Shown here: one piece after another, positions 17,213 through 60,213 of the stretch
Layout of the letters: each line of letters opens with the position of its first letter
Position numbering within the stretch: position 1 is the stretch's first letter
Assembly: GCA_965208575.1 (NCBI GenBank)
Contig: CBDBOV010000006.1
Span: forward strand, 96,001 to 160,000
Direction: 5' to 3'
DNA from: Spirochaetia bacterium
GTDB taxonomy: Bacteria > Spirochaetota > Spirochaetia > SZUA-6 > Bin103
Length of the DNA stretch: 64,000 bases
Made by a program: the position numbers and the translations under genes
Notes under the pieces: model-generated
What the model saw: the letters and a program-made list of their open reading frames with translations, nothing else
What the model was told of the DNA's origin: nothing
The model's database searches: none

Positions 17213-18484
17213 ATGACCCAATCTACAACCGTATATCCGTTGTCGGCGGTGCGGGCCCTGGCGCTGCATGCACAGGGGTTAGGCGAACCGCTGCGGCGGG
17301 GCGGGCGGCCATCGGTGGAGGACGTGTATGACGCCATCGAGCGGGTTGGGTGGGTGCAGATCGACACCCTGCAGGTAGTGCGGCGGGCGCAGTACCTGAC
17401 CCTGTGGAGCCGGCTCGGCACCTACGATCCGGCCCACCTCGACCGGCTGCTGTTCGACGGCGGCAGCGGCGGACCGGACAACGGGCGGCGGCTGTTCGAG
17501 AACTGGATGCACGCGGCCTGCATCATTCCGCTGACCCACTACCGCCTGGCGATGCCGATGATGCGCCGGCGCGCGGAGGGCCGCAGCGGCTGGCACCGCA
17601 GGTGGGTGCGCGACCCCGCCCGTGCCCGGCTGCTGCGGCAGGTGATGGCGCGCATCGAGGCCGAAGGGCCGCTCCGTCCGGCGGACATCCGCACCGAGAA
17701 GAAGCAGCCCGGCACCTGGTGGAACTGGGACGACGCCAAGATCGCCCTGGAACACCTGTACGACACCGGCGCGCTGGCCATCTGCAACCGGGTCAACTTC
17801 CAGCGCGTGTACGACCTGCGCGACCGCGTGCTGCCGGCGTGGGTCGACCGCCACGAGCCGTCCCGCGAGGATGCACTGGGCGCACTGTTGGAGATTTCGA
17901 GCCGGGCGCTCGGCGCCTGCAGCGCCGCCCAGGTGGCACACTACTTCCATGCCAAGCAGGCCGACGCCCGGCCGCTGGTCGACCGGCTGCGGGCCGAGGG
18001 CCGGCTCGTCACCGTAACGGCGCGGCTGGCCGACGGCGCCGATCACGAACTGGTGGTGCGCCGCGACAACCTGGAGCTGCTGCAGCGCGCCGCGGACGGC
18101 GACCTGCGTCCGCGCCGCACCACCTTCCTGAGTCCGTTCGACAGCCTGTTCTGGGCCAACGGGCGCGACCTGCAGGTGTGGCGGTTCCGGCAGGTGCTGG
18201 AGTGCTACAAGCCCGGGCCGCAGCGCGAGTGGGGCTACTTCTGCCTGCCGATCCTGGACCGCGACCGCCTGGTGGGCCGCTTCGACCCGAAGCTGGAGCG
18301 CGCCACCGGCCTGCTGCGGCTCAAGAGGCTCTACCTGGAGCCGGGGGTCCGGCCAAGCGCCCGCCTCGCCACCTCCGTGGCGCGCGCCATGCGCGACTTC
18401 ATGCGTTTCCACGCCGCCGACGACCTCGCCGTCGAGCACTGCGATCCGCCGTGTTTCCGCGCGAAGCTGACATCAGCACTTTGA
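17213..18484 (+). CDS. ycaQ: YcaQ/AlkZ-family (winged-helix) crosslink-repair DNA glycosylase
   Basis: VQIDTLQVV (QxD), LSPFDSL, YKPGPQREWGYFCLPIL, GRFDPK. Confidence 0.88.
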   Translation: MTQSTTVYPLSAVRALALHAQGLGEPLRRGGRPSVEDVYDAIERVGWVQIDTLQVVRRAQYLTLWSRLGTYDPAHLDRLLFDGGSGGPDNGRRLFENWMHAACIIPLTHYRLAMPMMRRRAEGRSGWHRRWVRDPARARLLRQVMARIEAEGPLRPADIRTEKKQPGTWWNWDDAKIALEHLYDTGALAICNRVNFQRVYDLRDRVLPAWVDRHEPSREDALGALLEISSRALGACSAAQVAHYFHAKQADARPLVDRLRAEGRLVTVTARLADGADHELVVRRDNLELLQRAADGDLRPRRTTFLSPFDSLFWANGRDLQVWRFRQVLECYKPGPQREWGYFCLPILDRDRLVGRFDPKLERATGLLRLKRLYLEPGVRPSARLATSVARAMRDFMRFHAADDLAVEHCDPPCFRAKLTSAL

Positions 18485-18913
18485 TTCGCTGCCACACGGG
18501 CCACTTCCGCACTGCACCGATGAGGGCCGATGGTAAGCGTCCGCGCCTACAACGGACGCGACGGACTGCACCGAAATCCTCCGATTCCGCCGGGACATCG
18601 ACCGTACTGCGGCACTTGCGACGCCATTAGAATGATGGCTGCCATTTGCTTATATTCAGTTCCGTAGGATGATGCGCCGGATGACCCGAACTAGATCAGG
18701 ACTGCCGTCACCGGTCAGTACCGGTGCGAATCAGGTAGTGTACAGAAGCCAAAGACCGGCGATTCGGACAGACGGCGCCAGATCACGTGCGTCATCTTAT
18801 GGCCTCTCGAACGCATCAATCCAGTGCTCGACGATCAAGCTCAGGCATGGAAACTCTCTCCTTGATCCGGTAATCCACACCGCTAACGCGCTCACCCCCG
18901 TAGGACCCACAAG

Positions 18914-19147
18914 ATGCCACCAATACCTATACCGGATCCGTCCTTTCTCGATACGTGCGAGTACCTGGGTACGTTCTCCGGCGAAAAACGTTGGCGTTCT
19001 CATGATCGAAAGCGGTTGTACACATGGGATTCTTTACATGGAGAAATCGAGGTCTTCAATAGACGAGGCAAGCACTTGGGGGCTCTTGACGCTATCTCTG
19101 GGAATCTTAGGAAAGATGCCGTTAAAGGACGTCGGATAGATGTCTAA
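18914..19147 (+). CDS. Stand-alone colicin E3-like (Cytotoxic domain) rRNase toxin, 77 aa
   Basis: KRWRSHDRKRLYTWDSLHGEIEVFNRRGKHLGALDAISG...GRRI aligns by eye to colicin E3 YEWDSQHGELE..HLGSFDPKTG; D/H/E catalytic set retained. Confidence 0.85.
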   Translation: MPPIPIPDPSFLDTCEYLGTFSGEKRWRSHDRKRLYTWDSLHGEIEVFNRRGKHLGALDAISGNLRKDAVKGRRIDV

Positions 19148-19457
19148 CTTTCTCGACAGGTGCCTATCAGGTGACGCTCTCGTTGAAGACATAGATGATT
19201 ACATAGATGACTGGCATCAAGGTGACAGTGATCAGTCCTTGCACGAGTTCTTGGGCATGACTCCCAGCGAGTACCGTTTGTGGGTGAAGGATCCGAACTG
19301 TCTTCCGTACATCGTGAGTGCACGTGTACGAGGGCATGAATTGACCGAATCCTCCGAACGGCAGGATGAACTAGCATTCGCGGCGAGATCAGATCGTCTT
19401 CGCGGTATTCCGAAGAAATTGATCGCATGGTTGAAGGACGAAGGATTATGGGAATAG
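19140..19457 (+). CDS. Hypothetical acidic 105-aa protein (candidate immunity/antitoxin)
   Basis: Overlaps toxin stop by 8 nt and peptidase start by 10 nt; acidic VEDIDDYIDDWH. Confidence 0.75.
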   Translation: MSNFLDRCLSGDALVEDIDDYIDDWHQGDSDQSLHEFLGMTPSEYRLWVKDPNCLPYIVSARVRGHELTESSERQDELAFAARSDRLRGIPKKLIAWLKDEGLWE

Positions 19458-20440
19458 AATTTACTCCGGAGACCAACATAGCACGAAGAATCGTCGACAA
19501 ATACTCTCTTTCTCCTCCGGTCGACATCAAGTCCATGGTTGAGTCGCATGCGCGACTTACCTTTGTGCCAATACCGTTTGACGGTATAGACGGCATTTCC
19601 CTGAACTTGAAGACTATAGGAAGGTCAACGCATGTCATTGTGAATAGCATGATCGCTTCTGCAAGGCAACGATTCACGATGGCTCATGAGCTAGGTCATA
19701 TACTGATTCCGTGGCATGTGGGATCAGTCTTGATTGACCAAGTTGCTCCTGAATCTCCTCAGAGGTCAAGCTACTTTACTCCCGACAGTTGGACCATGGA
19801 GACTGAGGCGAATGCATTTGCCGCGGAATTGTTAATGCCATACTCGTGGATAAACAGACAGCTCTCAACCACGGGTGACCTCTCAAGGATCCACCGAGAC
19901 ATATCAGTATCCTGCAGAACGTCGGCACTATCGGCAGCCATTCGACTATCGCAATTCCTTCCCAAGAGAATCGTCTATGCAGCCGAGCGTGATGGACTAG
20001 TTGAGTTCTCGGGTACGACTGAGGGCACGATTGCAAGTCCACTCGGAAAGGGTTCTGCATTCCCTATGAATCCATTTGCCTATAGCGATCAACATTATGT
20101 GTCATCGATGCATCAACGACGACTTCATTGGTGGAGATTGCCGGAACACATCCATATAGATGTTTCCGATGATCGAACTTGGAGAAATATCCTCGATCAC
20201 ATTCTTCAAGACATCGGTCTCGGTACGCAAGAGATCGCGAGGATGAAGATGTCAATCAGTGGTGTTGTAGGATCCGCAAACAATCGGTGCAAAAACAAGC
20301 ACTGTGTGAGCGAAATAGTCTCTTCCTGCGTGCAAAGACTAAGTGACCGTAACCGCTATCGAGACCTAGTCGGACACAGAGATTTCTATGCGTTTATCCA
20401 AAAACGAGCCATGGATATTGCAAACAGAAATGAGGCTTGA
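19448..20440 (+). CDS. ImmA/IrrE-family (Peptidase M78) zinc metallopeptidase, no N-terminal HTH
   Basis: RQRFTMAHELGH (HExxH) and ETEANAFAAELLMP. Confidence 0.92.
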   Translation: MGIEFTPETNIARRIVDKYSLSPPVDIKSMVESHARLTFVPIPFDGIDGISLNLKTIGRSTHVIVNSMIASARQRFTMAHELGHILIPWHVGSVLIDQVAPESPQRSSYFTPDSWTMETEANAFAAELLMPYSWINRQLSTTGDLSRIHRDISVSCRTSALSAAIRLSQFLPKRIVYAAERDGLVEFSGTTEGTIASPLGKGSAFPMNPFAYSDQHYVSSMHQRRLHWWRLPEHIHIDVSDDRTWRNILDHILQDIGLGTQEIARMKMSISGVVGSANNRCKNKHCVSEIVSSCVQRLSDRNRYRDLVGHRDFYAFIQKRAMDIANRNEA

Positions 20441-20509
20441 AGTCCATGTGAGTTGGTCGGATGACCAGCGCGCCGCCTGGTCATCGACAACAGCCAGGGA
20501 GTCTTCCTA

Positions 20510-20865
20510 ATGCGCGAGCCGGTTCTGCTTTTCGATCTTGGCAATACCCTGGTCGAGACTTTCGGCCGGGGGGTCCATGCCAGTCCTGCAGGAGTCGATC
20601 CGCTTGGCCGGGGAGGCGCTCGGCGCGGCCGGCCACCTGGTTTCCTCCCGGCGCCGAAGTGGAGCGCCGGGTGGCGGAGGAAACTCGCACCGCGCACAAC
20701 TATCGGGTGCGCCCGCTGCACCGGCGCCTGGTGCGCATCTTTCGCGTGCACGGCGGTGCCTACAGTGACACCATGCGCGCCATGAGCCGCGCGTTCATGG
20801 GACCCATCTTTGCCACGGCGCGCCGCTACGACGATACGCTCGACGCGCTGCCCTCATGGCGTCGG
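20510..20865 (+). pseudogene. Diverged frameshifted copy of the 5' part of the HAD gene (about 24028-24384)
   Basis: ATGCGCGAGCCGGTTCTGCT vs ATGCGCGAACCGGTTCTGCT; 1-nt deletion and 1-nt insertion. Confidence 0.9.
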
Positions 20866-21078
20866 GTGGGCCGCTTCGACCCGAAACTGGAGCGCGCCAC
20901 CGGCCTGCTGCGGCTCAAGAAGCTCTACCTGGAGCCGGGGGTCAGGCCGAGCGCCCGGCTGGCCACCTCGGTGGCGCGCGCCATGCGCGACTTCATGCGT
21001 TTCCACGCCGCCGGCGACCTCGCCGTCGAGCACAGCGAACCCTCCGACTTCGGCGCCCGGCTTACGGCGGCCCTGTAG
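20866..21078 (+). pseudogene. Diverged copy of the ycaQ 3' end (18272-18484) with alternative C-terminus
   Basis: VGRFDPKLERATG...VEH, then SEPSDFGARLTAAL* vs CDPPCFRAKLTSAL*; same length. Confidence 0.92.
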
Positions 21079-21104
21079 CTCCCGCGGCGCGCAGCCCCGA
21101 CCCT

Positions 21105-22112
21105 CTACGAGCGCGCGTCGCCGTCCCTTTCCGTCGGCGGTGCTCCGTAGTAGGTCTCGATCACCTCCTCGATGTCCGGGGCGACGATGCTGAAGTCATT
21201 GATCCGCATGAGGCGCGAAAGCCGCGAGATGAGCTCCACCGAGTCGTGCCGATGGTGGTCGAACTCGAGACAGATCCTGCTGTCTTCCGCCGACCGCAGC
21301 CGGCAGCCCGGTATGTCGATGGCGGGAACGGCGTCGTCGGTCAGCACGTACACCAGCTTGTAGGGAGCGAGCTTGCGGGTGATGTTCGCGAGCCGGTCGT
21401 CCTCCACGATGCGGCCGTGGTTGATGACGATGATGCGCTCGCACAGCTTCTCGATGTCGGACAGGTCGTGGGTGGTCAGGACGACGGTCGTGTGGTAGGC
21501 GCGGTTCATCTCCCGGATGAAGGTCTGAATCTTCTTCTTGCCGACGATGTCGAGACCGATGGTCGGTTCGTCCAGGAACAGCAGCTTGGGGGCGTGCAGG
21601 AACGCGCCCACCAGGTTGCCGCGCATGCTCTGGCCGAGCGAAAGCTGGCGCACCGGCTGGTCGACAATCTCGTCGATGTCGAGCAACTCGGCGAAGATGC
21701 CCATGCGCTCGGTGTAGTCGGCGTCGCTGATGTCGTACATGCGCTTGAGCAACTCGAACGTCTCTCCTAGCCGGATGTCCCAGTACAGTTGGCTGCGCTG
21801 CCCGAAAACAACCCCGATGTCCTCCGCCAGCTCGCGCCGCTTCCTCGGCAGCTCCAGGCCGTTCACCGCGACGGTGCCCGCCGACGGATGCAGGATGCCG
21901 CACAGCATCTTGATGGTGGTGCTCTTGCCGGAGCCGTTCGGACCGATGTAGCCGATGATCTCGCCCTGCTCGACGCTGAACGATACGTCCTTGACCGCCT
22001 CGATGGAGCGAATGTCAGGGAACAGCATCCCCTTCACCGCGCCGGCCAGGCCCTTCTTCTTCTGATTGACCTTGAAGGTCTTGGAGATGCGCCTGGTCTC
22101 AATGATGCTCAT
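21105..22112 (-). CDS. ABC-2 type exporter ATP-binding protein
   Basis: GPNGSGKST, LSLGQ, LFLDEPTIGLD. Confidence 0.93.
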   Translation of the reverse strand: MSIIETRRISKTFKVNQKKKGLAGAVKGMLFPDIRSIEAVKDVSFSVEQGEIIGYIGPNGSGKSTTIKMLCGILHPSAGTVAVNGLELPRKRRELAEDIGVVFGQRSQLYWDIRLGETFELLKRMYDISDADYTERMGIFAELLDIDEIVDQPVRQLSLGQSMRGNLVGAFLHAPKLLFLDEPTIGLDIVGKKKIQTFIREMNRAYHTTVVLTTHDLSDIEKLCERIIVINHGRIVEDDRLANITRKLAPYKLVYVLTDDAVPAIDIPGCRLRSAEDSRICLEFDHHRHDSVELISRLSRLMRINDFSIVAPDIEEVIETYYGAPPTERDGDARS

Positions 22113-22125
22113 CTTGGCTGATCCT

Positions 22126-22941
22126 TTAGTGTCCGGCGCTCTCGTAGTACCTGAGCCCGAGACGGAAGAACAGGTAGGACCCCACGGTAAGTACCACGGC
22201 CATGACCGCCATGGCGACGAACACCCCGGCGCCGGCCACCAGGCCGTCCTCGATACCCAGCACCGCCGACGCCGGGTAGAAGGCGACGAAGCCGGTTGGT
22301 ATCAGGAACGTGAGGATGAACTGCATCAGCCACGGGTAGACGGTCAGCGGGTAGCGCCCGATGTCGTTCATCAGCGACGCCGAGAACTCCTTGAGGGACT
22401 CGCGGTTGCGCCACCAGAAGCAGGTCGTCGAGCCGACCAGGTAGAGCGCGCCGCGGATGATGCTGCACAGCAACAGGAGCAGCACCAGGCCGGTCACGTT
22501 GCCGGCCGTGGCAGTGAAGCCCATCTCGGCCAGGCTGTAGACAATCATCACCAGCGCCAGGATCGGGTTGGCCAGGTCCATGTAGTTGACCCCACGCGAG
22601 ACGTGCAGCCACAGCGTGTCCAGGGGGCGTACCAGCAGCAGGTCGAAATCGCCGCGCAAGATAACGCGGCCCATGTACCAGATCGGTTGCGCCACCACCA
22701 GCACGATGCCGTGGGTCATGAGATTGAAGCTGTACAGGAACGACACCCCGGCGACGTCCCAGTCGCCGATCGCCTGAAATTCCGTGAACATCACCCGGAT
22801 CACGAAGAAGCCGGTTACGGCGGTGGTCAGATTCATCAGGAAGATGTTCTGCAGGTAGACCGGGTACTCGATGAGGCGGATCAACGACAGCTTGGTATAG
22901 AACAGGCTGACGCGGAGGTGCCGGGCGAGGGTGCTCATCAT
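22126..22941 (-). CDS. ABC-2 family permease (DUF990-like)
   Basis: GDFDLLLVRPL, YPLTVYP, YYESAG; ATGA coupling. Confidence 0.88.
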   Translation of the reverse strand: MMSTLARHLRVSLFYTKLSLIRLIEYPVYLQNIFLMNLTTAVTGFFVIRVMFTEFQAIGDWDVAGVSFLYSFNLMTHGIVLVVAQPIWYMGRVILRGDFDLLLVRPLDTLWLHVSRGVNYMDLANPILALVMIVYSLAEMGFTATAGNVTGLVLLLLLCSIIRGALYLVGSTTCFWWRNRESLKEFSASLMNDIGRYPLTVYPWLMQFILTFLIPTGFVAFYPASAVLGIEDGLVAGAGVFVAMAVMAVVLTVGSYLFFRLGLRYYESAGH

Positions 22942-23777
22942 CCCCCCTGCACCACGATCTTCTTCTTGACCAGGTTCCACATCATGGCGGCACAGAGCAC
23001 GCCCACGGCAATCCACAGGAGCTGGGTCGCGAGCCCTTCGAAAATCTCTGCGCGCGAGAACTTGCCGATGTAGATGCCGAGCGGGAACTGGTAGATATAG
23101 ATGAACGGCAGGAACGACGAGATGCGCTGGAACCACTCCGGAAAGAACCAGATCGGCACCACGCTGCCGGACAGGAACACGACCGTCGCGCGCACGACCA
23201 GGCCGAAGTTGCCGAAGTCCATGTACCAGATCGAGGTGAGTCCGACCATGTAGCTGATCGAGGTCATCAGCACGTAGCTGAAACCGAGACTGACCAGGAA
23301 CCACAGGAACAGCGGCCCGCTCGCCGGCAGCGGGACGGCAATCAGCAGCGACGCAACCACGACCAGCGGCACGCCCCGAATGAGCAGCCGGCTCACCGCG
23401 GCGCCCAGGTCGTCGGCCACCCACGCCGCCCAGAGGTGCATCGGGCGGATCAGGTCGATGCTGATGCTGCCGTTGTAGATGCGCTCGTTGATCTGCTCGG
23501 GCAGGTCGGAAAACAGCAGTTGATTCATCGTCTGGGCGGCGATCAGGTACACCAGCATCTGGCCCAGGGTTACGGCGCGCGCGGTCTCCTGGTCGCCGTA
23601 CAGGGCCTTCCACAGGAACGACATGCCGACCACCACGACGAAGCTGGTCAGAACGAGGAACGCCACCTCCGTTCGATACTCGAGGCTCGACAGGAATCGC
23701 GTCTTGACTATGTGCCCGTAGAGCCGCGGCCGCATCGCGGGAATGTAGCGAGACTCGTCCACGCCGGCAACCGACAT
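22938..23777 (-). CDS. ABC-2 family permease
   Basis: GSISIDLIRP, LSGSVVPIWFFP, IVVQGG; start uncertain. Confidence 0.88.
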   Translation of the reverse strand: MSVAGVDESRYIPAMRPRLYGHIVKTRFLSSLEYRTEVAFLVLTSFVVVVGMSFLWKALYGDQETARAVTLGQMLVYLIAAQTMNQLLFSDLPEQINERIYNGSISIDLIRPMHLWAAWVADDLGAAVSRLLIRGVPLVVVASLLIAVPLPASGPLFLWFLVSLGFSYVLMTSISYMVGLTSIWYMDFGNFGLVVRATVVFLSGSVVPIWFFPEWFQRISSFLPFIYIYQFPLGIYIGKFSRAEIFEGLATQLLWIAVGVLCAAMMWNLVKKKIVVQGG

Positions 23778-23929
23778 CGGCCGCCGCGGGCCGCCGCGGC
23801 TGCCGCGTTCCTGCACGGTCCGGCGCGGCCAGGGCAATCACGCCGGCCGATGGCGCGCAGCAGCGCCGGTGGTGGGGCTTGGGGTGCTTCGGTGGTTCGG
23901 TGACGGCGCCGCGCGTTATCCGGGAGCCG

Positions 23930-24000
23930 CCGATGCTGTTCCTGACCATCACCGTCTACAGCCTGAACGTGCTTCGGTCGGATGCGTTGCTCGATCTCGG
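23930..24000 (+). pseudogene. Relic of a DppC-type permease 3' end
   Basis: LTITVYSLNVLRSDALLDL resembles LTITVWSLNMFGDAVRDL of 48008-48940. Confidence 0.45.
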
Positions 24001-24027: not shown

Positions 24028-24855
24028 ATGCGCGAACCGGTTCTGCTGTTCGATCTTGGCAATACCCTGGTCGAGTACTTTCGGCCCGGCGGGTTCACGC
24101 CGGTCCTGCGGGAATCGATCCGCCTGGCCGGGAAAGCGCTGGCCGAGGCCGGCCACCCGGTTCCTCCCGGCGCCGAAGTGGAGCGCCGGGTGGCGGAGGA
24201 GGATCACACCGCGCGCAACTACCGGGTGCGCCCGCTGCACCGGCGCCTGGCGCGCATCTTTCGGCTGCACGGCGGGGCCGACAGTGACATCATGCGCGCC
24301 ATGAGCCGCGCGTTCATGGAACCCATCTTTGCCACCGCGCGCTGCTACGACGATACGCTCGATGCGCTGTCCTCGTGGCGGCGGCGCGGCTACCGGATCG
24401 GCATCCTGTCCAACGCGCCGTGGGGCACGCCGCCGTGGGCGTGGCACGAGGAGCTGGCGCGGCACGGACTGGCCGAGCGCTGCGACCTGGCCCTGTTCTG
24501 CGGCGAGGTGGGGTGGCGCAAGCCCGCCCTCCCGCTGTTCCGCGCGGCACTGAACCACTTCGCCTGCCGCCCCGAGGACTGCGTGTTCGTCGGCGACGAC
24601 CCGCGCTGGGACGTGTACGGCGCGCGGCGGGCGGGCATCACGCCGCTGCTGATCGACCGCACCGGTGCCGGTGCACATGGCGCGCAGCCGGACTTGCGTT
24701 CGCTCGCCGACCTGGAACCGGTGCTGGCGCGCTGGGACGGCGCCGGCGGACGCTCCACCGGAGCCGGGCCGGCGGCCGGTACCGAGGCGACCGGCGGCGG
24801 CGGACGCGGTACCGGAACCGGGGCGGCGGGCGCCGCCGGCGCGGGTGGTGCCTGA
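24028..24855 (+). CDS. HAD-superfamily hydrolase
   Basis: LLFDLGNTL, ILSN, WRKP, FVGDD; Gly/Ala-rich tail. Confidence 0.9.
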   Translation: MREPVLLFDLGNTLVEYFRPGGFTPVLRESIRLAGKALAEAGHPVPPGAEVERRVAEEDHTARNYRVRPLHRRLARIFRLHGGADSDIMRAMSRAFMEPIFATARCYDDTLDALSSWRRRGYRIGILSNAPWGTPPWAWHEELARHGLAERCDLALFCGEVGWRKPALPLFRAALNHFACRPEDCVFVGDDPRWDVYGARRAGITPLLIDRTGAGAHGAQPDLRSLADLEPVLARWDGAGGRSTGAGPAAGTEATGGGGRGTGTGAAGAAGAGGA

Positions 24856-26122: not shown

Positions 26123-26415
26123 ACCGCCTCAACCGGGACACTTTCGCCGCACGCGGCAATGGCGATCACAGCGCGATCGGGGTCTCGCGTTCAGATAAAC
26201 ACCGCGGGCGATACCCCGAACCTCCGGCTGAGCGCCCTAACCTGCCGAATGTTCAATTGCCGGCGGCCGCGAAGCACCTCAGACACCACACCCTGACTGC
26301 CGATTTACGGCACGTTGGACTGCGTGAGCCCGTGCTCGCCCATCAGGTACTCAAGCACGGCAACGGGATTTCCGGATGGCTCGGGATCATGCTCGCGCTC
26401 GTAGCTGTCTACTAG

Positions 26416-28489: not shown

Positions 28490-28675
28490 CTAGGCTGCCA
28501 AGCGTCTCCATCAGCGAAGCCCACAGGTGGTCCTCATTCTCGCCGAACTCGTCGGTGACGCTGTCCAGAAGCGAGCGAAGCTCACGGTACGCTTCCTCCG
28601 TATGCGGCACGGCGAGCGTCTCACCGATCTTCGGCCATGCCTCGGACAGGTTTTGGAGTTCGCGAATCATGCCTT

Positions 28676-33083: not shown

Positions 33084-33095
33084 TGATCAGTGCCC

Positions 33096-46927: not shown

Positions 46928-46960
46928 TGGGGGGCTCGCAATGACAAGGAGTAGTGTGAC

Positions 46961-47989: not shown

Positions 47990-48007
47990 AGGGGGAAAAC
48001 CGGAAAC

Positions 48008-51631: not shown

Positions 51632-51834
51632 CGAGTGGAAGGGCTGACGCGTCCGCGGCGAGAGCCCGGGCGCGGTCGGCAGCCCGCGGCGGAACCCGGC
51701 GTCGCACCGAGAGCGCCGCATGCAATGCAGCCGGAGCTTCGCCACGGGCTGCGGAGAAGCCTGAGGCCGGCCGGCGGACGGTGGGCGTGCTGCCAGCCGC
51801 CGCCCGCCGGCCGCCACTGGCCTGAGCGCCGATC

Positions 51835-52821
51835 ATGACCGAATACCTGATTCGCCGCCTGCTGCTGATCGTCCCGGTCCTGCTGCTCATCTCGGTGCTC
51901 GCCTTCATCGTGATGGAGGCGCCGCCGGGCGACTTCGTCACCTCCTACATGATGCGGCAGGCGGAGGCGGGCGCCCTGTTCGACGGCGCCGGCGTCGAGG
52001 AGGGGCTGCGCGCGATGTGGGGGCTGGACAAGCCGTGGTACGTGCGCTACCTGCGCTGGCTCGGCAACCTGGCCCGCGGCGACCTGGGCTACTCGCTGTT
52101 CTGGCAGGCGCCGGTGGACGAGATCATCGCCTCGCGCTTCATCCTCAGCATGACGGTGGCGCTCGCCGCAACCGTGCTGGTGTGGGTGATCGCGTTCCCG
52201 ATCGGCATCTACTCGGCCACCCGGCAATACTCCCTGTCCGACAACGCCGTCACCTTCGTCGGCTTCCTCGGGCTCTCCATCCCCAATTTCCTGCTGGCGC
52301 TGATCATGATGTATCTCGCCAACCGCTTCCTGAACATTTCGATCGGCGGCCTGTTCTCGCAGAAGTACGTCACCGCCGAGTGGAGCTGGGGAAAGCTGCT
52401 CGACTTCCTCGGACACCTGTGGGTGCCGATCATCGTGATCGGGGTGGCCGGCACCGCCGGGCTGATCCGGATTCTGCGCGCCAACCTGCTGGACGAGATC
52501 AGCAAGTCGTACGTGGAGATGGCGCGCGCCAAGGGGCTGCGCGAGACCGTGCTGATCATGAAGTACCCGGTGCGCATCGCCATCAACCCGTTCATCTCGT
52601 CGATCGGCTGGGTGCTTCCCGGCATGATCTCCGGCGACGTGATCGTGTCGGTGGTGCTCGGCCTGCCCACCGCCGGGCCGCTGTTCCTGCAGGCGCTGCG
52701 GCAGCAGGACATGATGCTGGCCGGCGCCTACATCATGCTGATCTCGGTGTGCACGGTGGTCGGAATCCTGCTGTCGGACATCCTGCTGGCCGTGGTCGAT
52801 CCGCGCATCAGGTACCATTAG
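51835..52821 (+). CDS. ABC permease B (module 1)
   Basis: MTEYLIRR, MARAKG, DPRIRY. Confidence 0.93.
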   Translation: MTEYLIRRLLLIVPVLLLISVLAFIVMEAPPGDFVTSYMMRQAEAGALFDGAGVEEGLRAMWGLDKPWYVRYLRWLGNLARGDLGYSLFWQAPVDEIIASRFILSMTVALAATVLVWVIAFPIGIYSATRQYSLSDNAVTFVGFLGLSIPNFLLALIMMYLANRFLNISIGGLFSQKYVTAEWSWGKLLDFLGHLWVPIIVIGVAGTAGLIRILRANLLDEISKSYVEMARAKGLRETVLIMKYPVRIAINPFISSIGWVLPGMISGDVIVSVVLGLPTAGPLFLQALRQQDMMLAGAYIMLISVCTVVGILLSDILLAVVDPRIRYH

Positions 52822-52987
52822 AGGCGCGTCGGGATGCGGCAGGCCAATCCGAAACAAGTGGCCGGCGACCGATGCACGTGCGGCACGGTGCGCCGCGGTT
52901 GGCGTCCTGGATCGACCGCGCCGGCTCACCGTGCCAGCCGGTGGCGCCGCACCGCGCGCCGGTCGGCGGCGGTTGCGGGGCACTGAC

Positions 52988-54100
52988 GTGGCAACCGATC
53001 TGGCGGCCCACGAAGCGCTGGCCGCGCCGCGCGCGAGCATCCCGCAGTGGCGGCTGGTGTGGCGCAAGTTCCGCAAGAGCCGGCTGGCGGTGGCCGGCGC
53101 CGTGGTCATCGTCATGTGCTACCTCATGGCCGCCTTCGCCGAGTTCTGCGCGCCCTACGATCCGCGCTTCCGCGACGTGGACCACCCGGCCGCGCCGCCG
53201 ATGCGGGTGCGCCTGTTCGCCGACGGAACGCTGCACCGGCCGTTCGTGTACGGCGTTGTGCAAACGGTGAACATGGAGACCCTTACCCGGAGCTACGAGA
53301 TCGACCCCGACCGGCGCCACCCGCTGGCCCTGTTCGTGCGCGGCGACGGCTACCGCCTGTGGGACCTGTGGGACGGAGAGATTCACTTGTTCGGCACCGC
53401 CGACGGCGGCCGGGCGTACCTGCTCGGCACCGACCGCGACGGCCGCGACCTCCTGTCGCGCATCATCCTCGGCTCCCGGCTGTCGCTGTCGATCGGCCTG
53501 GTGGGGGTGGCGCTGAGCTTCTGCTTCGGCATCGTGCTCGGTTCGGTCTCCGGCTATTTCGGCGGCGCGGTGGACATGGTGATCCAGCGCTTCATCGAGG
53601 TGCTCACCTCCATCCCCACCCTGCCGCTGTGGATGGGCCTGAGCGCCGCCCTGCCGCTGCGCTGGCCGGTGGTGAAGGTGTTCTTCTTCATCTCCCTGAT
53701 CCTGTCGCTGCTCGGCTGGCCGGAGCTGGCGCGGGTGGTGCGCGGCAAGTACCTGTCGCTGCGCGAGGAGGACTTCATCACCTCGGCGGTGCTGGACGGG
53801 GTGGGCACCCGCGGCGTGATCTTCCGCCACATGCTGCCGTCGTTCATGAGCCACATCATCGCCGCGGCGACCCTGGCGGTGCCGAGCATGATCCTGGCGG
53901 AGACCGCGCTCAGCTTTCTCGGCATCGGCCTGCGCCCGCCGGCGGTGAGTTGGGGCGTGCTGCTGCAGGACGCGCAGAGCGTCGACTCGGTGGTGGCGAT
54001 GCCGTGGCTGTTCACGCCCGGCCTGTTCGTGGTGGTCAGCGTGCTCGCCTTCAACTTCTTCGGCGACGGCCTCCGCGACGCCGCCGACCCCTACAAGTAG
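52988..54100 (+). CDS. ABC permease C (module 1)
   Basis: GTDRDGRDLLSR, DAADPYK; start uncertain. Confidence 0.92.
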   Translation: MATDLAAHEALAAPRASIPQWRLVWRKFRKSRLAVAGAVVIVMCYLMAAFAEFCAPYDPRFRDVDHPAAPPMRVRLFADGTLHRPFVYGVVQTVNMETLTRSYEIDPDRRHPLALFVRGDGYRLWDLWDGEIHLFGTADGGRAYLLGTDRDGRDLLSRIILGSRLSLSIGLVGVALSFCFGIVLGSVSGYFGGAVDMVIQRFIEVLTSIPTLPLWMGLSAALPLRWPVVKVFFFISLILSLLGWPELARVVRGKYLSLREEDFITSAVLDGVGTRGVIFRHMLPSFMSHIIAAATLAVPSMILAETALSFLGIGLRPPAVSWGVLLQDAQSVDSVVAMPWLFTPGLFVVVSVLAFNFFGDGLRDAADPYK

Positions 54101-54142: not shown

Positions 54143-55708
54143 TCAGGCGTCGGCTACTTCGAACGCCGTGAGGTTACGCGTTGCGCGGCTGAATTCTACT
54201 CCGACCAGGTGGATCGGCTCGCCTCGTCCCCGGTACTTCGCCGCGTAGTCGCGCGCCTGCAACTGCGCCAGCGCCGATCCCGGCGGCGCCATCTCCGCCA
54301 CCTTGAACTCGAACAGGTACACGTGCCCGTACGCGCGCACCGCCATGTCCAGCCGCCCGTGGCTGCTCGACTCTTCCACCGCGATCTCGTACCCCAGCGC
54401 GGCGAAGTAGGAGTAGAACACGCTCGCGTAGAAGCCCTCGTACTCGGCAATGTCGTTGTTGGTGTACCATTGGTAGGGAATGCTCGCGTAGAACGCCTGA
54501 AACAGCTCCTTCAGCCCCGCGCAGTCGTGCGCTTCAAGCAGCCGCGCCAGCCGCATGCTGTTCGCCGTCTGCCGGTCGGCATCCTGCACCAGGTGCAGCA
54601 GCAGTTGTTCGTTCAGGCTCTCACGCACCTCCCGGTTCGGATAGCCGAGCCGATAGAGCGTCCTGCCTCCCAGCCGCTCTTCTCCCGTTATCGTCAGGTA
54701 GCCGGTCTGGAACAGCAGCGCCTCGGTGCCGATGTGCTCAGCGGCGGAGCGGCCGCCGACGTCGAACGCCGACAGCAGTCTCTCCGTGCTCACCATCTCG
54801 TCCAGTGCCACCGTCGACACCCGACGCTTGAACAGCGTCTCCACCAGGAACGCCGGCGTCCCGGTCTCGAACCAGTGCGCGGCGAACCGCCGCCGCCTGA
54901 GCAGCAGCAGCACGTCGTAGGGGTTGTACACCTTCTCGTCGCCCAGCCAGCCGTAGCCGTTGTACCACTCGCGCACCCGCTCCCGGTCCAGGCCGGCCAT
55001 CTCGGGGCCGAACACCGTGTCCAGGTCACGCTCGGTGTAGCCGCAGATCGACGAGTAGACCGGATCGAGCGTGATGTCCGTGAGGTTGTTCAGTTGGGAA
55101 AAGAGGTTCACCTTGGAGAACTTGCTGATGCCGGTAAGGAACGCGAACCGCACGTGTGCGTCGCTGTCCTTGATCACGCCGTACAGGCCGCGCAGGAAGT
55201 CACGGTTGGCGCGCGCCACTTCGGGCTTTTCCAGCGCGTCCAGGATCGGCTTGTCGTACTCGTCCACCAGCACTGCCACGCGCTGCTCCGCCCTCAGATG
55301 CAGTACTTCGAGCAGGTGAGCGAACCGCTCCGGCGCCGTGGCGTAATCAGACCTCGCACCGGTCCGCCGCTGCACGGCATCCAACTGCGCCATCACGTTA
55401 CCTTCAACCGTGTCCGGTTCTCCGAAATGGCGGCCGCCAAAGCTCAACCGCACCACCGGGTGGCGAGCCGACCAGTCCCACCGCTCGTGGATGTACAGCC
55501 CCGCGAACAGCTCCTCGCTGCCCTCGAACAGCTCCCCCAGCGTGTCCAGTAACAGGCTCTTCCCGAACCGCCTCGGACGTGACAGGAAGTAGTGGGTGCC
55601 TTCGTCCAACAGACGTTCGATGAAGTACGTCTTGTCGACATAGTAGCAGTCCCGCTCCCGCAGCGTGCGGAATGTCTGTATGCCGATCGGCAGTCTGCGG
55701 CGGGTCAC
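54143..55708 (-). CDS. AAA-ATPase-like domain plus C-terminal PD-(D/E)XK nuclease
   Basis: LPIGIQTF, YVDKT, RPRRFGKS, VDEYDKP, GRLDMAV...YLFEFK. Confidence 0.9.
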   Translation of the reverse strand: MTRRRLPIGIQTFRTLRERDCYYVDKTYFIERLLDEGTHYFLSRPRRFGKSLLLDTLGELFEGSEELFAGLYIHERWDWSARHPVVRLSFGGRHFGEPDTVEGNVMAQLDAVQRRTGARSDYATAPERFAHLLEVLHLRAEQRVAVLVDEYDKPILDALEKPEVARANRDFLRGLYGVIKDSDAHVRFAFLTGISKFSKVNLFSQLNNLTDITLDPVYSSICGYTERDLDTVFGPEMAGLDRERVREWYNGYGWLGDEKVYNPYDVLLLLRRRRFAAHWFETGTPAFLVETLFKRRVSTVALDEMVSTERLLSAFDVGGRSAAEHIGTEALLFQTGYLTITGEERLGGRTLYRLGYPNREVRESLNEQLLLHLVQDADRQTANSMRLARLLEAHDCAGLKELFQAFYASIPYQWYTNNDIAEYEGFYASVFYSYFAALGYEIAVEESSSHGRLDMAVRAYGHVYLFEFKVAEMAPPGSALAQLQARDYAAKYRGRGEPIHLVGVEFSRATRNLTAFEVADA

Positions 55709-56062: not shown

Positions 56063-58045
56063 ATGAACAGGAGACACGGAACGGCACTTGTCATTGGCAT
56101 TATCGCGCTGAGCATGTCCACACCATTTGTGTTCGCTGCCGCCGCCGACGAGACCGCCGCCGAGGCCGCTCCCGAGCAGGACATGGTGGTCTATGACACC
56201 TACCACTGGGCGACGCCTGCCGAGTTCGAACAAGCCACGGGCCAACAGGTGGGCGAGTACAACGAAGCTCCCATGCTGGCCGCCATGGTTGCCGCGGGAG
56301 ACCTGCCACCCGTAGAAGACAGGCTGCCGAACGAACCACTGGTGATAGGCAAGAAGATCGGCAAGTACGGCGGCACCATGTACATGGCCAACCCGTGGAA
56401 GGCCTGGTCCTACGGGGCGGAGCCTTACAGCCTGTACGGGTTCGGCATAGCGGAACACACCTGGACCTACCACATCTACCCGAACCTGGCGAAGAGCTAC
56501 GACATGGAGGATGCGGGCCGGGGCTGGGTGATACACCTCCGCGAGGGCCTGAAGTGGTCCGATGGAGCGCCGTTCACCGCCGATGACGTGGTATTCTGGT
56601 GGGAAGACATCACCACGATGCAACCGCATCCCGACGTGTTCACCAAGCACCAGATGGAGACGCACGTCTACAAGGGCGTCGAAAAGATCGACGACTACAC
56701 CCTCAGGTTCACCTTCAACGGCCCCACGCGCGACGTATTCTTCAGCGTCCAGGCGGGCAAGGCGATCGCCGGATTCGCCAAGCACTACTTCAAGCAGTTC
56801 CATCCCACCTATGCGGACGCAGGGGACCTGGATGCGCTTGTGAAGGAAGGCGGGTTCGATTCCTGGCAGACGCTGTTCGCCAACAAGTTCGATCAGCGCG
56901 GCCTGCACAACACGGAACGGCCGGTGCTGCTTCCCTGGACCCTGTCCAAGGGCACTCCCGGCGACATCATCATGACCAGGAACCCGTACTACTGGGTGGT
57001 GGACCCGGCCGGCAATCAGCTCCCCTATATCGACGAACTGTACCGCTTCATGGAGCTGGAGTTGGAGACCATCAACCTGAAGGCGCTCGCCGGCGAGCTG
57101 GACGTGGCGCGAGTCAGCATGGAGACCTACAATATCGCCAAGGACCGCGAGGACCAGGGCAAGATTGTCGCGGCACGGTACGCGGCTTCGGACCGCGTGC
57201 ACACCGCGTTCGGATTCAACTTGACGCACAAGGATCCGGTCCTGAGAGAGATCTTCCGGGACAAGCGGTTTCGATTCGCCACCTCCCATGCCCTCAATCG
57301 CGAGCAGATGAACGAGCTGGTGTTCAATGGCTTGTCGCGGCCGTGGCAGGACGGGACGCCGGAGGGCGATCCTTACTACCACGAGCGGCTGGCAACCACG
57401 GCGACCGAGTACGATCCGGACAAGGCAAACGCCCTGCTGGACGAAATGGGCCTGGAGAAGGGCTCGGACGGGTTCCGCACACGTCCCGATGGCAGCAAGC
57501 TTCAGATCACCATGATCAGCCGCACCAACCGGGGGCCCGGGGAGCGCATCGCGGAGCTGATAGCCGACGACCTGAAGGCGGTCGGGCTGGACGTCAACCT
57601 GCGGATTGTCGAGCGCAGCCTGATGGTCGAGACGTGCCGTGCCAATGAAATCGAGATGAAGGTCGACGACGGCGGAGCAGCCGGCATGACGTTCAGCGGC
57701 TACTTCGAAGGCCACCTGGTGCCGGCGCATCCGACCTGCCCCTTCTCGCCGGGGTGGCAACGTTGGGGGGTGGATCCGAGCACGGGCGAGGAACCGCTTC
57801 CCGCCATGCAGGAGGCCATGGCGGCCTATAGAGCGGGTTTCGAGACCATCGACCTGGCGGAGCGCCAGGAACTGTGGGCACGGGTGGCCGATATCGGCGC
57901 CGACAACCTGTGGGCGGTCGGCACCGTCACGTCGCCGGGTTACTTCAAGATATACAGTTCACGCCTGGACAACTGGCCCACGGACGAACTGCCGTTCGAC
58001 CGTGGCGGCGACAAGGGACGCCCCGACATCTACTTCTTCAAGTAG
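56063..58045 (+). CDS. ABC substrate-binding protein, family 5 (module 2)
   Basis: RBS GGAGG; paralog of 49595-51631 (AEHTWT, YPNL, DRGGDKGRP). Confidence 0.93.
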   Translation: MNRRHGTALVIGIIALSMSTPFVFAAAADETAAEAAPEQDMVVYDTYHWATPAEFEQATGQQVGEYNEAPMLAAMVAAGDLPPVEDRLPNEPLVIGKKIGKYGGTMYMANPWKAWSYGAEPYSLYGFGIAEHTWTYHIYPNLAKSYDMEDAGRGWVIHLREGLKWSDGAPFTADDVVFWWEDITTMQPHPDVFTKHQMETHVYKGVEKIDDYTLRFTFNGPTRDVFFSVQAGKAIAGFAKHYFKQFHPTYADAGDLDALVKEGGFDSWQTLFANKFDQRGLHNTERPVLLPWTLSKGTPGDIIMTRNPYYWVVDPAGNQLPYIDELYRFMELELETINLKALAGELDVARVSMETYNIAKDREDQGKIVAARYAASDRVHTAFGFNLTHKDPVLREIFRDKRFRFATSHALNREQMNELVFNGLSRPWQDGTPEGDPYYHERLATTATEYDPDKANALLDEMGLEKGSDGFRTRPDGSKLQITMISRTNRGPGERIAELIADDLKAVGLDVNLRIVERSLMVETCRANEIEMKVDDGGAAGMTFSGYFEGHLVPAHPTCPFSPGWQRWGVDPSTGEEPLPAMQEAMAAYRAGFETIDLAERQELWARVADIGADNLWAVGTVTSPGYFKIYSSRLDNWPTDELPFDRGGDKGRPDIYFFK

Positions 58046-58063
58046 TATCGGCTCTGGAACCGG

Positions 58064-58094
58064 CGGGAGGGGAGCGCCATATGCTCCCCTCCCG
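58064..58094. terminator. 12-bp hairpin between SBP and permease
   Basis: CGGGAGGGGAGC...GCTCCCCTCCCG. Confidence 0.6.
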
Positions 58095-58145
58095 AATTCT
58101 CTGCGCTACCGCGAGCCAGCACGCTTATTCGCACCAATTTGACGC

Positions 58146-59132
58146 ATGGTAGATTACCTGATTCGACGCATTCTGCTCGTCCTGCCAACTCTCCTCGTCG
58201 TATCCATTCTTGCGTTCCTGGTGATGGAAGCGCCGCCCGGCGACTTCGTTACCACCTACATCGCGGGCCAAGCCACCTTGGGCGTACAGGTCGGCGGCAT
58301 CGAAGTCGAAGAGCAGTTGCGGGAGATCTGGGGCCTCGACAAACCGCTGCACATTCGCTACCTCAGGTGGATCGGCAACCTGCTCAGGGGCGAGCTCGGC
58401 TACTCGCTGTTCTGGCAGGCACCGGTCAAGGAAATCATCGCTTCCCGGTTTATCCTCAGCATGGTGATACCGGCCGTGGCCACCGGATTCGTCTGGGTCG
58501 TGGCATTTCCCATCGGCATCTACTCGGCCACCCACCAGTACTCGGCTTCCGATACAACACTGACCCTGCTCGGCTTTCTCGGCCTGTCCATCCCCAACTT
58601 CCTGCTGGCCCTCGTTCTGATCTATCTCGGCAACACCTATTTCGGCATTTCGGTCGGCGGTCTGTTTTCCAAGGAATATCTCAGAGCTTCGTGGAGCCTG
58701 GGAAAGGCACTCGACTTCATCAAGCACCTGTGGATTCCGATCATCGTCGTCGGCACCGCCGGAACGGCTGGTTTGATCCGCATCATTCGCGCCAACCTGC
58801 TTGACGAAATAGGCAAGTCGTACGTGGAAATGGCCAGGTCCAAGGGCCTGTCGGAACCGCGGCTCATTTTCAAATACCCGGTACGGATCGCCATCAGTCC
58901 GTTCATTTCGTCGATCGGCTGGGTGTTGCCGGGAATGATCTCCGGCGAGGTGATCGTGTCCGTGGTGCTCGGCCTGCCGACCGCCGGTCCGATATTCCTG
59001 CGCGCGCTGCGCATGCAGGACATGCAGCTCGCCGGTGCCTATATCATGCTCATTTCGGTATTCACGATCGTCGGGGTGTTTCTGTCCGATATTCTGCTGG
59101 TCATTGTCGACCCGAGAATCCGGTATACCTGA
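58146..59132 (+). CDS. ABC permease B (module 2)
   Basis: 328 aa, collinear paralog of 51835-52821. Confidence 0.93.
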   Translation: MVDYLIRRILLVLPTLLVVSILAFLVMEAPPGDFVTTYIAGQATLGVQVGGIEVEEQLREIWGLDKPLHIRYLRWIGNLLRGELGYSLFWQAPVKEIIASRFILSMVIPAVATGFVWVVAFPIGIYSATHQYSASDTTLTLLGFLGLSIPNFLLALVLIYLGNTYFGISVGGLFSKEYLRASWSLGKALDFIKHLWIPIIVVGTAGTAGLIRIIRANLLDEIGKSYVEMARSKGLSEPRLIFKYPVRIAISPFISSIGWVLPGMISGEVIVSVVLGLPTAGPIFLRALRMQDMQLAGAYIMLISVFTIVGVFLSDILLVIVDPRIRYT

Positions 59133-59136
59133 CGAA

Positions 59137-60213
59137 ATGAGAGAGGGTCTCCACAGCGCCTCTCAATCGCGGCTGATCTGGCGCAAGTTCAAGAAGAGCC
59201 GCGTCGCGGTGGGTTCGGCGATTGTCATCGTCCTGTTCTACCTGATGGCCGCCTTTGCCGAGTTCGTGACGCCCTACGATCCCGGCGCGCGTGACATGAA
59301 TCATCCGTCAGCCCCGCCCATGATGGTGCGCATTGTCGGCGATGGGCGCTTGCAGATGCCGTTCGTGTATGGCCTGAAGAAGGACACGGGCACGTACGCG
59401 CGCAGGTACGTCGTGGACAAGACCAGGAAGTATCCGCTTGCCTTGTTCGTGCGCGGAGACAGATACCGGATGTGGGGCGTGGTGAACAGCGACCTGCACC
59501 TGTTCGGAACGCCGCATGACACCCGAGTCTACCTGTTTGGCACCGACAAGGACGGACGCGACCTGCTGTCACGGATCATCCACGGGGCGCGGCTGTCGCT
59601 GTCGATAGGGTTCGTCGGCGTCGCGATAAGCTTCTCGATCGGCATTGTGCTGGGATCGATATCCGGCTACTTCGGGGGAGTCGTGGACATGGTCATTCAG
59701 CGATTCATCGAGATTCTGAGCTCCATTCCGACGCTTCCGTTATGGATGGGGCTGAGCGCCTCCCTGCCCCTGCGCTGGTCCGTAATCGAGGTGTTCTTCG
59801 CCATTTCGGTGATCCTGTCGTTGCTGGGTTGGCCGGAGATGGCGCGCGTGGTGCGAGGCAAGTTCCTGGCGCTGCGGTCGGAGGACTTCATCGTTTCCGC
59901 GCGCCTGGACGGGGTCCGCACCAGCGGTCTCATGTTTCGTCACATGCTGCCGCTGTTCCTCAGCCACATCATTGCGGCGGCGACGTTGGCGATTCCGGGC
60001 ATGATCCTGGCCGAGACCAGCCTCAGCTTCCTGGGCATCGGGCTCAGAACACCCGCGATAAGCTGGGGCGTGCTGCTGCAGGCGGCTCAGAACACGGAAA
60101 CGGTGGCCTCGGCGCCGTGGCTGTTCATTCCCGGCGCGTTCGTGGTGGTCGCCGTACTCGGCTTCAACTTCCTCGGCGATGGGCTTCGCGATGCCGCCGA
60201 TCCCTACAAGTAG
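59137..60213 (+). CDS. ABC permease C (module 2)
   Basis: GTDKDGRDLLSR, DAADPYK. Confidence 0.92.
   Translation: MREGLHSASQSRLIWRKFKKSRVAVGSAIVIVLFYLMAAFAEFVTPYDPGARDMNHPSAPPMMVRIVGDGRLQMPFVYGLKKDTGTYARRYVVDKTRKYPLALFVRGDRYRMWGVVNSDLHLFGTPHDTRVYLFGTDKDGRDLLSRIIHGARLSLSIGFVGVAISFSIGIVLGSISGYFGGVVDMVIQRFIEILSSIPTLPLWMGLSASLPLRWSVIEVFFAISVILSLLGWPEMARVVRGKFLALRSEDFIVSARLDGVRTSGLMFRHMLPLFLSHIIAAATLAIPGMILAETSLSFLGIGLRTPAISWGVLLQAAQNTETVASAPWLFIPGAFVVVAVLGFNFLGDGLRDAADPYK

Follow-up and report, generated by a model that had tools for sequence, protein, structure and literature searches.

Tandem alleles and partial flank-gene copies at two variable sites of a sponge-associated Spirochaetia genome

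Introduction

How are islands of defence and transport genes built when they carry no integrase? The literature on defence hotspots treats this as an open question (PMC10250203). A 64,000-nucleotide (nt) stretch of a Spirochaetia genome (G000:C6:96001-160000, hereafter the window) raises it directly. The window holds two variable sites between conserved genes: one lies between an AlkZ-like DNA glycosylase gene and a HAD hydrolase gene (the AlkZ/HAD site), and the other between a conserved gene that an earlier note on this DNA had called Ogl and a gene for a solute-binding protein (the Ogl/SBP site). The earlier note, made from the sequence alone, described at least five blocks of cargo genes bracketed by diverged direct copies of host-gene segments (“arms”) and read them as DNA from relatives that had been added by recombination. 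Here we report that the observation is partly confirmed and that its interpretation is partly supported. The first site carries both of its alternative alleles in tandem, fused at a joint between pieces of the two flanking genes, and on balance we favour an account in which segments from related lineages were added beside a resident allele.

The source genome, G000, is a metagenome-assembled genome (MAG) of 6.5 Mb and 67% GC in six contigs of 0.5-1.7 Mb, 95% complete with 5.75% “contamination.” The window was examined by self-BLAST, a repeat search, searches of Pfam, NCBIfam, PADLOC and PDB, and Nei-Gojobori substitution counts. For comparison, we used genomes of the genus (G001, G003, G006, G007 and G009 among them) and, for the IetAS cassette described below, 23 other genomes of the family. 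The closest relative, G006, belongs to a sister species, and the aligned parts of its region are 91-98% identical to those of G000. Four sequencing runs hold the locus, all from one sample with many related strains. Small shares of the words of this sample also occur in sponge and reef metagenomes, and the bacterium is sponge-associated.

Results

The AlkZ/HAD site carries both of its alleles

Four of the repeat pairs in the earlier note, namely AlkZ-3' (which it called ycaQ-3'), HAD-5', Ogl-3' and an SBP fragment, are real; they are 177-631 bp long and 90-98% identical. The first two lie at the AlkZ/HAD site. There, the full-length AlkZ-like gene (17171-18484, + strand; Pfam PF06224, 5.8e-52), which has orthologues in G006, G007 and G001, contains at its 3' end copy a of the AlkZ-3' arm (18266-18480, +), found by self-BLAST and by the repeat search. 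Cargo 1 follows (18669-20440, +) and consists of three open reading frames (ORFs) of 156, 105 and 337 aa with ~49% GC. The third encodes an IrrE/M78- and CapP-like protein (Pfam Peptidase_M78, 2.8e-12; PADLOC capP, 7.5e-29), and the first two proteins had no match in Pfam, NCBIfam, PADLOC or PDB sequences. Copy a of the HAD-5' arm (20510-20865, +) is a pseudogene fragment with three 1-nt indels. It runs into copy b of the AlkZ-3' arm (20860-21074, +), which leads to an AlkZ-type stop codon at 21078. The two fragments meet at joint J1 (20860-20866), where HAD nt 356 abuts AlkZ nt -215; this joint is illegitimate, with at most 3-4 nt of microhomology. Beyond it lies cargo 2 (21105-23952, -), an ABC-2 type exporter with its ATPase at 21105-22112 and its membrane protein at 22126-23952 (Pfam ABC_tran, ABC2_membrane_6), and then the full-length HAD hydrolase gene (24028-24855, +; Pfam Hydrolase/HAD_2), whose first 357 nt are copy b of the HAD-5' arm. 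The order is AlkZ, cargo 1, HAD(1-356) fused to AlkZ(last 215 nt), cargo 2, HAD. An M20 peptidase gene is also among the genes of the region.

The relatives carry these cargoes singly. In G006, AlkZ and HAD enclose only cargo 2 (94% identical to that of the window), and in G001 and G007 they enclose only the cargo-1 allele, the IrrE/CapP triad, at 70-72% identity. Thus, the window carries both alternative alleles of the AlkZ/HAD site in tandem, and since these alleles are joined at J1, the AlkZ and HAD repeat pairs are the product of a single event. The five occurrences counted in the earlier note therefore come down to three robust events and a weak one. Partial HAD copies are present in two (G000 and G006) of the five genus genomes that have HAD.

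The AlkZ-3' pair (18266-18480 and 20860-21074) is 87% identical over 215 nt and 94.4% identical over a 177-nt core, and the HAD-5' pair (20510-20865 and 24028-24384) is 89.7% identical over 358 columns. This divergence resembles that between sister species: the AlkZ arms are 94.4% identical to each other versus 92.7 and 93.8% to G006, and the HAD arms are 90.4% identical to each other versus 89.0 and 92.4% to G006. Synonymous and non-synonymous differences number 16.5:11.5 in the AlkZ arms and 16:18 in the HAD arms, giving non-synonymous to synonymous ratios per site (omega) of 0.22 and 0.38; the corresponding G000/G006 orthologues give 0.255 and 0.40-0.56. Both pairs of arms thus have an omega like that of functional orthologues, which shows purifying selection per site. 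Sliding identity of AlkZ, cargo 2 and HAD against G006 revealed no clear breakpoint between donor and recipient, and the resident allele is not identifiable from this alone.

Just upstream of AlkZ, a ~950-bp segment (16208-17157) is absent from G006; its ORFs have no family match.

The Ogl/SBP site carries two cassettes

The second site begins with a full-length conserved gene of 395 aa (36443-37630, +), the last 10 codons of which come from the border of a cassette. We keep “Ogl” as its label; the gene had no match in Pfam, NCBIfam, PADLOC or PDB. Its Atlas neighbours are annotated “hypothetical,” with PD40 in 12% of members, and homologues occur in other phyla at 53-69%. Copy a of the Ogl-3' arm (36971-37599, +) is followed by the IetAS defence cassette with its borders (37600-41243, -), in which IetS (37791-39998; PADLOC, 3.2e-168) and IetA (39940-40953; PADLOC, 3.1e-133) were recognized. 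Copy b of the arm (41244-41874, +) is frameshifted by a 2-nt insertion and leads into the native Ogl tail; joint J2, between 41243 and 41244, shows 5 nt of microhomology. An internal SBP fragment (41920-42115, +; gene nt 617-812) lies 24 nt after the Ogl stop codon. Past an insertion sequence (IS) element, copy C below, comes a low-GC cassette of the Dpp type (44323-48940, +; Pfam) with a leader (44323-44910), an SBP gene (44911-46788) and two permease genes. The resident SBP gene is full length (49595-51631, +; Pfam SBP_bac_5) and contains the second SBP arm (50211-50406). The window therefore reads Ogl, IetAS, Ogl-3' copy b, native tail, 24 nt, SBP fragment, IS copy C, leader and Dpp genes, SBP.

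In G007 and G009, the region upstream of SBP follows Ogl within 30-52 nt, and in G001 it does so within 250 nt; the site is empty in these three genomes. G003 has ~1 kb extra between Ogl and SBP. The Ogl arms match a single-copy Ogl in G007, G001, G003 and G009, and AlkZ is likewise single in relatives. The claim that cassettes were added rather than swapped is supported by these alleles: single cassettes stand at the AlkZ/HAD site of G006, G001 and G007, and Ogl/SBP is empty in G007, G009 and G001. It is further supported by the recurrence of this layout, in G006 around different cargo and at other places in G000.

G000 and G006 have in common the joint at which the SBP fragment follows 24 nt behind the Ogl stop codon, and also the Dpp cassette (98% identical, in the same place). 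This addition thus predates the split of G000 from G006 and is no artefact of one assembly. The IetAS cassette is specific to G000: the 23 other genomes of the family hold no close DNA match to it, only similarity of ~70% in the AAA domain.

G006 itself carries two extra Ogl-3' copies around other cargo. Reading from Ogl to SBP, a Dpp cassette precedes the first of them, and a degraded cargo1-HAD-M20 segment, at 88% identity to the G001/G007 allele, separates it from the second, which is followed by SBP. Of the nine genus genomes that have Ogl, only G000 and G006 contain partial copies of it.

The Ogl-3' pair (36971-37599 and 41244-41874) is 98.4% identical over 631 columns and the SBP pair (41920-42115 and 50211-50406) 95.9% identical over 196 nt, each with synonymous and non-synonymous differences of 4:4 and with omega at 0.32 and 0.26, respectively. 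The earlier note had called the differences between arms largely synonymous. Per site this stands, in that omega is 0.22-0.38 across the four pairs and shows purifying selection, but the raw counts are near-even and the claim was overstated. A similar split applies to its picture of the arms as diverged alleles, which fits the AlkZ and HAD arms but not clearly the Ogl arms. In the latter, 7 mismatches fall within the first 46 nt, and the remaining ~585 nt contain one mismatch and the 2-nt indel (99.5% identity). A tree of the Ogl arm copies groups them by genome. The likeness of the Ogl arms reflects either a recent event or ongoing gene conversion between them. The shared right end of the Ogl arms (37599) is the point at which the Ogl C-terminal tail and the DNA downstream of it turn variable between species.

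In all four runs, a contig tracks the window to 36939, inside Ogl, and diverges 32 nt before the arm begins (36971); another contig joins the window from 50912, inside SBP. The continuations beyond these points were not found in G000 or in the loci of the relatives compared, and these contigs probably represent another allele of the hotspot in a co-resident strain.

Local direct repeats are in excess across the genome

Low-copy repeats of 100-1500 bp and 84-100% identity were counted throughout G000. At spacings of 0.2-20 kb, 132 were direct and 11 inverted; at 20-100 kb, the numbers were 38 and 2. Over 100 kb apart, there were 20 direct and 32 inverted repeats, and on different contigs 98 and 96. 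The local bias toward direct orientation has p = 7e-25 against a baseline of 52.8%, the share of same-strand pairs among ORFs no more than 20 kb apart. For 118 direct events spaced 0.5-20 kb apart, the part of the unit after the first arm that aligned collinearly with the next unit was below 30% in 95, 30-70% in 20 and at least 70% in 3.

We inspected 12 events, a non-random set chosen for high identity and short spacing. In at least 5, gene-end or internal fragments bracket unrelated cargo; the source genes of these fragments encode a permease (twice), a molybdenum cofactor-binding dehydrogenase, an NHL-repeat protein and a LuxR-type regulator. Another event is a simple tandem pair of paralogues, and one adjoins a tyrosine integrase, an IS3 element and a reverse transcriptase. 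At two loci, L111 and L106, relatives have shorter or empty intervals. Automatic classing of 127 direct pairs by reading frame and ORF ends was also tried; 70 came out as “unclear” because high GC gives rise to spurious long frames, and the result was not used.

Two further observations concern repeats elsewhere in G000. Locus L111 contains a 1.3-kb segment (L111:5025-6348; G000:C5:66424-67747) with a 348-aa ORF of no known family; at least 10 copies occur in G000 at 87-96% identity, and it is also present in relatives. At G000:C1:143000-206000, ten partial Phage_integrase matches cluster with several local direct repeats, which may be a different, recombinase-linked kind of array.

Recombinases, transposable elements and neighbouring genes

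The absence of tyrosine and serine integrases and of tRNA genes from the window, as the earlier note had it, was upheld. None of the 18 Phage_integrase matches found by a six-frame search of the genome falls in the window, which also has no tRNA gene, and Resolvase had no match anywhere in the genome by the same search. An IntI-type tyrosine recombinase, the mark of an integron, was not found next to the array. No domain of a transposase or integrase is present in the ORFs of cargo 1, cargo 2 or IetAS. Readings of the region as an integron or as a tRNA-associated island were rejected, since the window has neither a tyrosine recombinase nor a tRNA. The description “integrase-free” therefore holds for these recombinases but not for transposases: five transposase genes and one transposase-gene fragment lie in the stretch.

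Among those missed in the earlier note are a 2,084-bp IS1634-family element, which is present three times, an IS3 element and an rve fragment. The 2,084-bp element inserts at CTAG and has 8 full-length copies in the genome that are 99.95-100% identical, besides several partial ones. Copy A (26412-28495, -; NCBIfam, 2.6e-80) and copy C (42239-44322, +, inverted) can be shown to be simple CTAG insertions of later date, since G001 lacks the former and G006 the latter at an unbroken site; copy C lies in the Dpp block. Copy B (31377-35751, -) is split into 31377-31680 and 33968-35751 by a 2.3-kb insert with a 6-bp duplication that carries IS3-family orfA/orfB (31662-32899). Target duplications were considered as a test of the IS copies and set aside as uninformative, given insertion at CTAG, and the empty sites of relatives were used instead. 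Around copy C, position 44419 is joined back to 42221 by way of 5 additional letters in contigs of three runs, and one run has a joint without the IS (42247 to 44330). Variants without copy C, and with another arrangement, thus co-occur in the sample.

The fifth pair of the earlier note, its “SGNH-3'” pair, does exist as a repeat (28907-29021, + and 36277-36392, +), but it is weak, with 74% identity over 116 nt and a longest exact block of 14 nt, and the family name had no Pfam match even at E<=1, nor any match in NCBIfam, PADLOC or PDB sequences. The gene between these repeats (29375-31135, -), which had been taken for a PD-(D/E)XK nuclease gene, encodes a second IS1634-family DDE transposase (NCBIfam, 2.2e-96; DDE_Tnp_1, 5.5e-15). 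The rve fragment lies at 35930-36229.

The right end of the range in the earlier note (56197-60213) is a paralogous Dpp operon (65-76% identical to 49759-54100) and contains no arm. The two further Dpp operons after the low-GC one are both paralogues at this level. The Dpp leader of ~590 nt (44323-44910) has dozens of copies in the genome. The low-GC operon itself has 53-55% GC, and its permease pair occurs in many ~80% identical copies across most genus genomes. Between two of the Dpp operons lies a gene with AAA-ATPase_like and PDDEXK_9 domains (54143-55708, -) that is absent from this place in G006 and has many copies at ~77-85% across the genus genomes searched; it may belong to a selfish or mobile gene family.

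Discussion

The arms, their joints, the single-cassette and empty alleles of relatives and the excess of direct repeats are features of the genomes as they stand. To account for them, we favour, as the more probable course, the addition of segments from related lineages beside the resident allele by one-sided homologous plus illegitimate recombination, with remodelling afterwards. One side of each incoming segment would have been joined by homologous recombination in a flank gene, and on the other the ends would have met at an illegitimate joint sharing 0-5 nt of microhomology. Because one side is homologous and the other illegitimate, a piece of the flank gene would be duplicated, and such pieces would be the arms. 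The “homology-anchored recombination” of the earlier note thus covers one side of each event, and each event also needs one illegitimate joint. Two routes could be taken: (a) homology-facilitated illegitimate recombination (HFIR) of a linear fragment or (b) end-joining of the fragment into a circle followed by a single RecA crossover of the Campbell type. Both give the same product and are not separable here. The product would then have been remodelled by IS1634 insertion, by deletions at the expense of the arms and by gene conversion from one arm to another.

How the segments recombined, which way they were transferred and whether Ku/LigD or DNA uptake had a part are matters of inference here. 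Genes for Ku and for a LigD-type protein (an ORF of 999 aa) lie 5 kb apart (G000:C5:579317-585426) and are predicted to form a complete end-joining system; in control searches of 14 well-known genomes, the Ku and LigD families each matched only one. Genes for ComEC and DprA are present, which are widespread and no proof of competence. RecA can act on arms with long exact blocks and so mediate deletion or amplification; the exact blocks in the arms here are 40-304 nt long, and re-excision of cassettes through them, the “accordion” proposed in the earlier note, is plausible on this basis.

Several points weigh against this account. The Ogl arms are 99.5% identical past nt 46 and cluster by genome; the event may have been a duplication within the genome, or its signal may have been lost to gene conversion. 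The left ends of three Ogl-3' copies (copy b of the window and copies 2 and 3 of G006) fall within 42 nt of each other, which a purely random illegitimate joint does not predict. No donor of the IetAS cassette was found among the 23 other genomes of the family. To fit either route, the SBP fragment calls for one more step, a deletion. Of the 12 hand-picked, non-random loci inspected genome-wide, 5 have no class. Finally, the short contigs of the four runs, from a strain-rich metagenome, gave no proof of long-range continuity.

The alternative that survives best, which we nonetheless judge unlikely, is that the segment between the flank genes was first duplicated in tandem within the genome and that the cargo of one unit was then replaced by double-crossover exchange with a relative. 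Tandem duplications are common, this course leads to the same final map, and the near-identical, genome-specific Ogl arms suit it. What weighs against it is the sequence at J1. Here, copy a of HAD-5' mismatches the resident HAD 6, 12 and 19 nt from the joint, and copy b of AlkZ-3' mismatches the resident AlkZ at nt 3 and 5. A crossover cannot fit into so few bases. To derive the DNA at the joint from the resident genes by copying, one would have to assume further replacements, and flanks that differ within a few bases are hard to square with a plain duplication followed by a swap. In addition, duplication first would need two or more rare events held together by selection.

A second alternative takes the cassettes for non-autonomous integrative elements that bring a replacement 3' end and are moved in trans by a site-specific recombinase acting near Ogl nt 529-570. 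Prophage e14 in icd carries such a replacement 3' end for its target gene. The clustered starts of the three Ogl-3' copies would fit, as would the departure of the co-occurring sample variant at 36939, close to the arm start, and the fact that the full-length gene is kept intact with a new tail. Yet no recombinase gene lies in or beside any cassette examined in the window, and the three left ends are at different positions with no common core. The edge of the arm, where an identical core would be expected, is its most diverged part (7 of 46 nt), and the fusion of both flank-gene fragments at J1 is left unexplained. We therefore give this alternative little weight.

The tandem alleles could also have been produced during assembly by concatenation of co-occurring strains. 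The MAG status and contamination figure of G000 allow for this, and strain diversity is high: each run yields ~2,100-2,900 contigs on a 20-kb stretch, roughly half of them only 90-95% alike. Nevertheless, J1 joins unrelated sequences, and no overlap could create it. Over 1.1 kb around it (20300-21400), a fraction of 0.93-0.99 of 123 sampled 31-mers is present in the contigs of the four runs. At the other site, one contig that matches with 0 differences covers the Ogl/IetAS joint, from 30 nt to its left to 2.2 kb inside the cassette, and the joint between the Ogl stop and the SBP fragment recurs in G006, a separate genome record. The contigs of G000 traverse the eight near-identical 2-kb IS copies, which implies that the assembly rests on long reads. 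Run depth is summed over organisms, which makes a coverage ratio unusable, and the contigs are uninformative on excised circles or arm-recombined forms. Taken together, these data make an assembly artefact highly unlikely.

IS1634 of Mycoplasma is known for long, variable target duplications (alluded to in PMC2853133), and IS1634-family elements lie inside two of the five bracketed blocks, but transposition as the source of the long repeats has a negligible chance of being right, since copies A and C are simple insertions whose empty sites are intact in relatives, the arms do not abut IS ends, the AlkZ, HAD and Ogl blocks have no IS, and arms differ by 2-10% versus IS copies that are 99.95-100% identical.

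The favoured account, addition by one homologous and one illegitimate side, has close precedents. HFIR was described by de Vries & Wackernagel 2002, Prudhomme et al. 2002 and Meier & Wackernagel 2003, as cited in PMC5361080, and is also reported for conjugation in E. coli (PMC3240628). It shares with the present case one homologous anchor and an illegitimate joint with short microhomology, foreign DNA being added beside the anchor; here, anchors are seen in AlkZ, HAD, Ogl and SBP, each with orthologues in the corresponding place of relatives, and illegitimate joints at J1 and J2. It differs in that HFIR is known from laboratory transformation or conjugation with short inserts, whereas here it would be read from natural scars, serially at the same sites, and in that the donor DNA would be an allele of the same locus, so that pieces of flank genes are duplicated. 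As to the foreign origin of the added DNA, the AlkZ and HAD arms, diverged like sister species, agree with it; the Ogl arms, near-identical past nt 46, do not show it.

Furuta, Abe & Kobayashi 2010 described restriction-modification (RM) genes inserted with long target duplication and proposed a cycle of insertion, amplification and release (PMC2853133). Their cases likewise involve a defence insert with no mobility gene, and the direct repeats on either side of it, which measure tens to hundreds of bp, correspond to a sequence that a related genome has once. The repeats quoted there are near-identical (e.g., 417/423), whereas here the AlkZ (87-94%) and HAD (89.7%) arms are diverged and the Ogl arms are 98.4% identical. 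Furthermore, one joint here fuses pieces of both flank genes, and none of the cargoes (IetAS, the CapP-like triad, the ABC-2 exporter, the Dpp operon) is an RM system.

A third precedent is the orphan array, formed by C-terminal displacement in rhs, contact-dependent inhibition and type VI secretion loci, for which Kirchberger et al. 2017 proposed HFIR (PMC5361080, which cites Jackson et al. 2009 for such arrays). There too, displaced 3' fragments, each accompanied by separate cargo, line up behind a full-length gene, and no integrase takes part; Ogl has one extra 3' copy in the window and two in G006, and AlkZ has one. Orphan arrays hold toxin tips and immunity genes under competition-driven selection, and no such genes are cargo here. 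The repeated genes of the present region are instead of a housekeeping type (a DNA glycosylase, a HAD hydrolase, a propeller-like protein, SBP and permeases).

Core defence hotspots and replacement islands, which are exchanged by way of the core genes at their flanks, also show variable defence content between fixed core genes, and many of the sites listed by Johnson et al. 2023 have no detectable mobile gene (29% and 47%; PMC10250203). Scar-free swapping is inferred in that account, which leaves open how the sites are constructed; here, additive scars are preserved. In Streptococcus pneumoniae, incoming DNA can create tandem duplications during transformation, giving merodiploids (Johnston et al. 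2013, PMC3784515). The tandem units described here differ from one another in content, and their joints are illegitimate. In the pneumococcal case, a repeated sequence (an IS) reportedly serves as the alternative pairing site, and large resident segments are duplicated. The architecture thus matches Furuta-type insertions and HFIR orphan arrays and differs from them in that some arms are homeologous, and in its joint of both flanks, the ordinary genes involved and its genome-wide occurrence. In the literature searched, which is no proof of absence, we met no description of alternative alleles of one hotspot standing in tandem.

A bolder reading is that adding without swapping may be a main route of genome growth in this sponge-symbiont lineage and that a cassette with one arm would be a RecA-dependent mobile unit, which leaves as a circle by way of its arms and can enter any relative by a single crossover. 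Circles would pass between co-resident strains, and units formed for the first time would be made by Ku/LigD end-joining. We consider this doubtful; if true, the hotspots would be integrase-free accordions and the ~95 direct repeats in which only the arms are shared would be their record.

Exchange by way of the flanks normally leaves no scar. Here the scars are preserved, as a fused joint, as arms with the divergence of a donor and as relatives that hold each intermediate state. Judged by how far the AlkZ and HAD arms have diverged, the donor lineages would stand at roughly the distance of the sister species. With scars of this kind, the additive route can be counted directly in long-read metagenomes. 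Our results suggest that end-joining and homologous recombination, among crowded close relatives, can enlarge genomes cassette by cassette. This would be one way for gene islands to grow without an integrase, with partial duplicates of flank genes as the scars of that growth.

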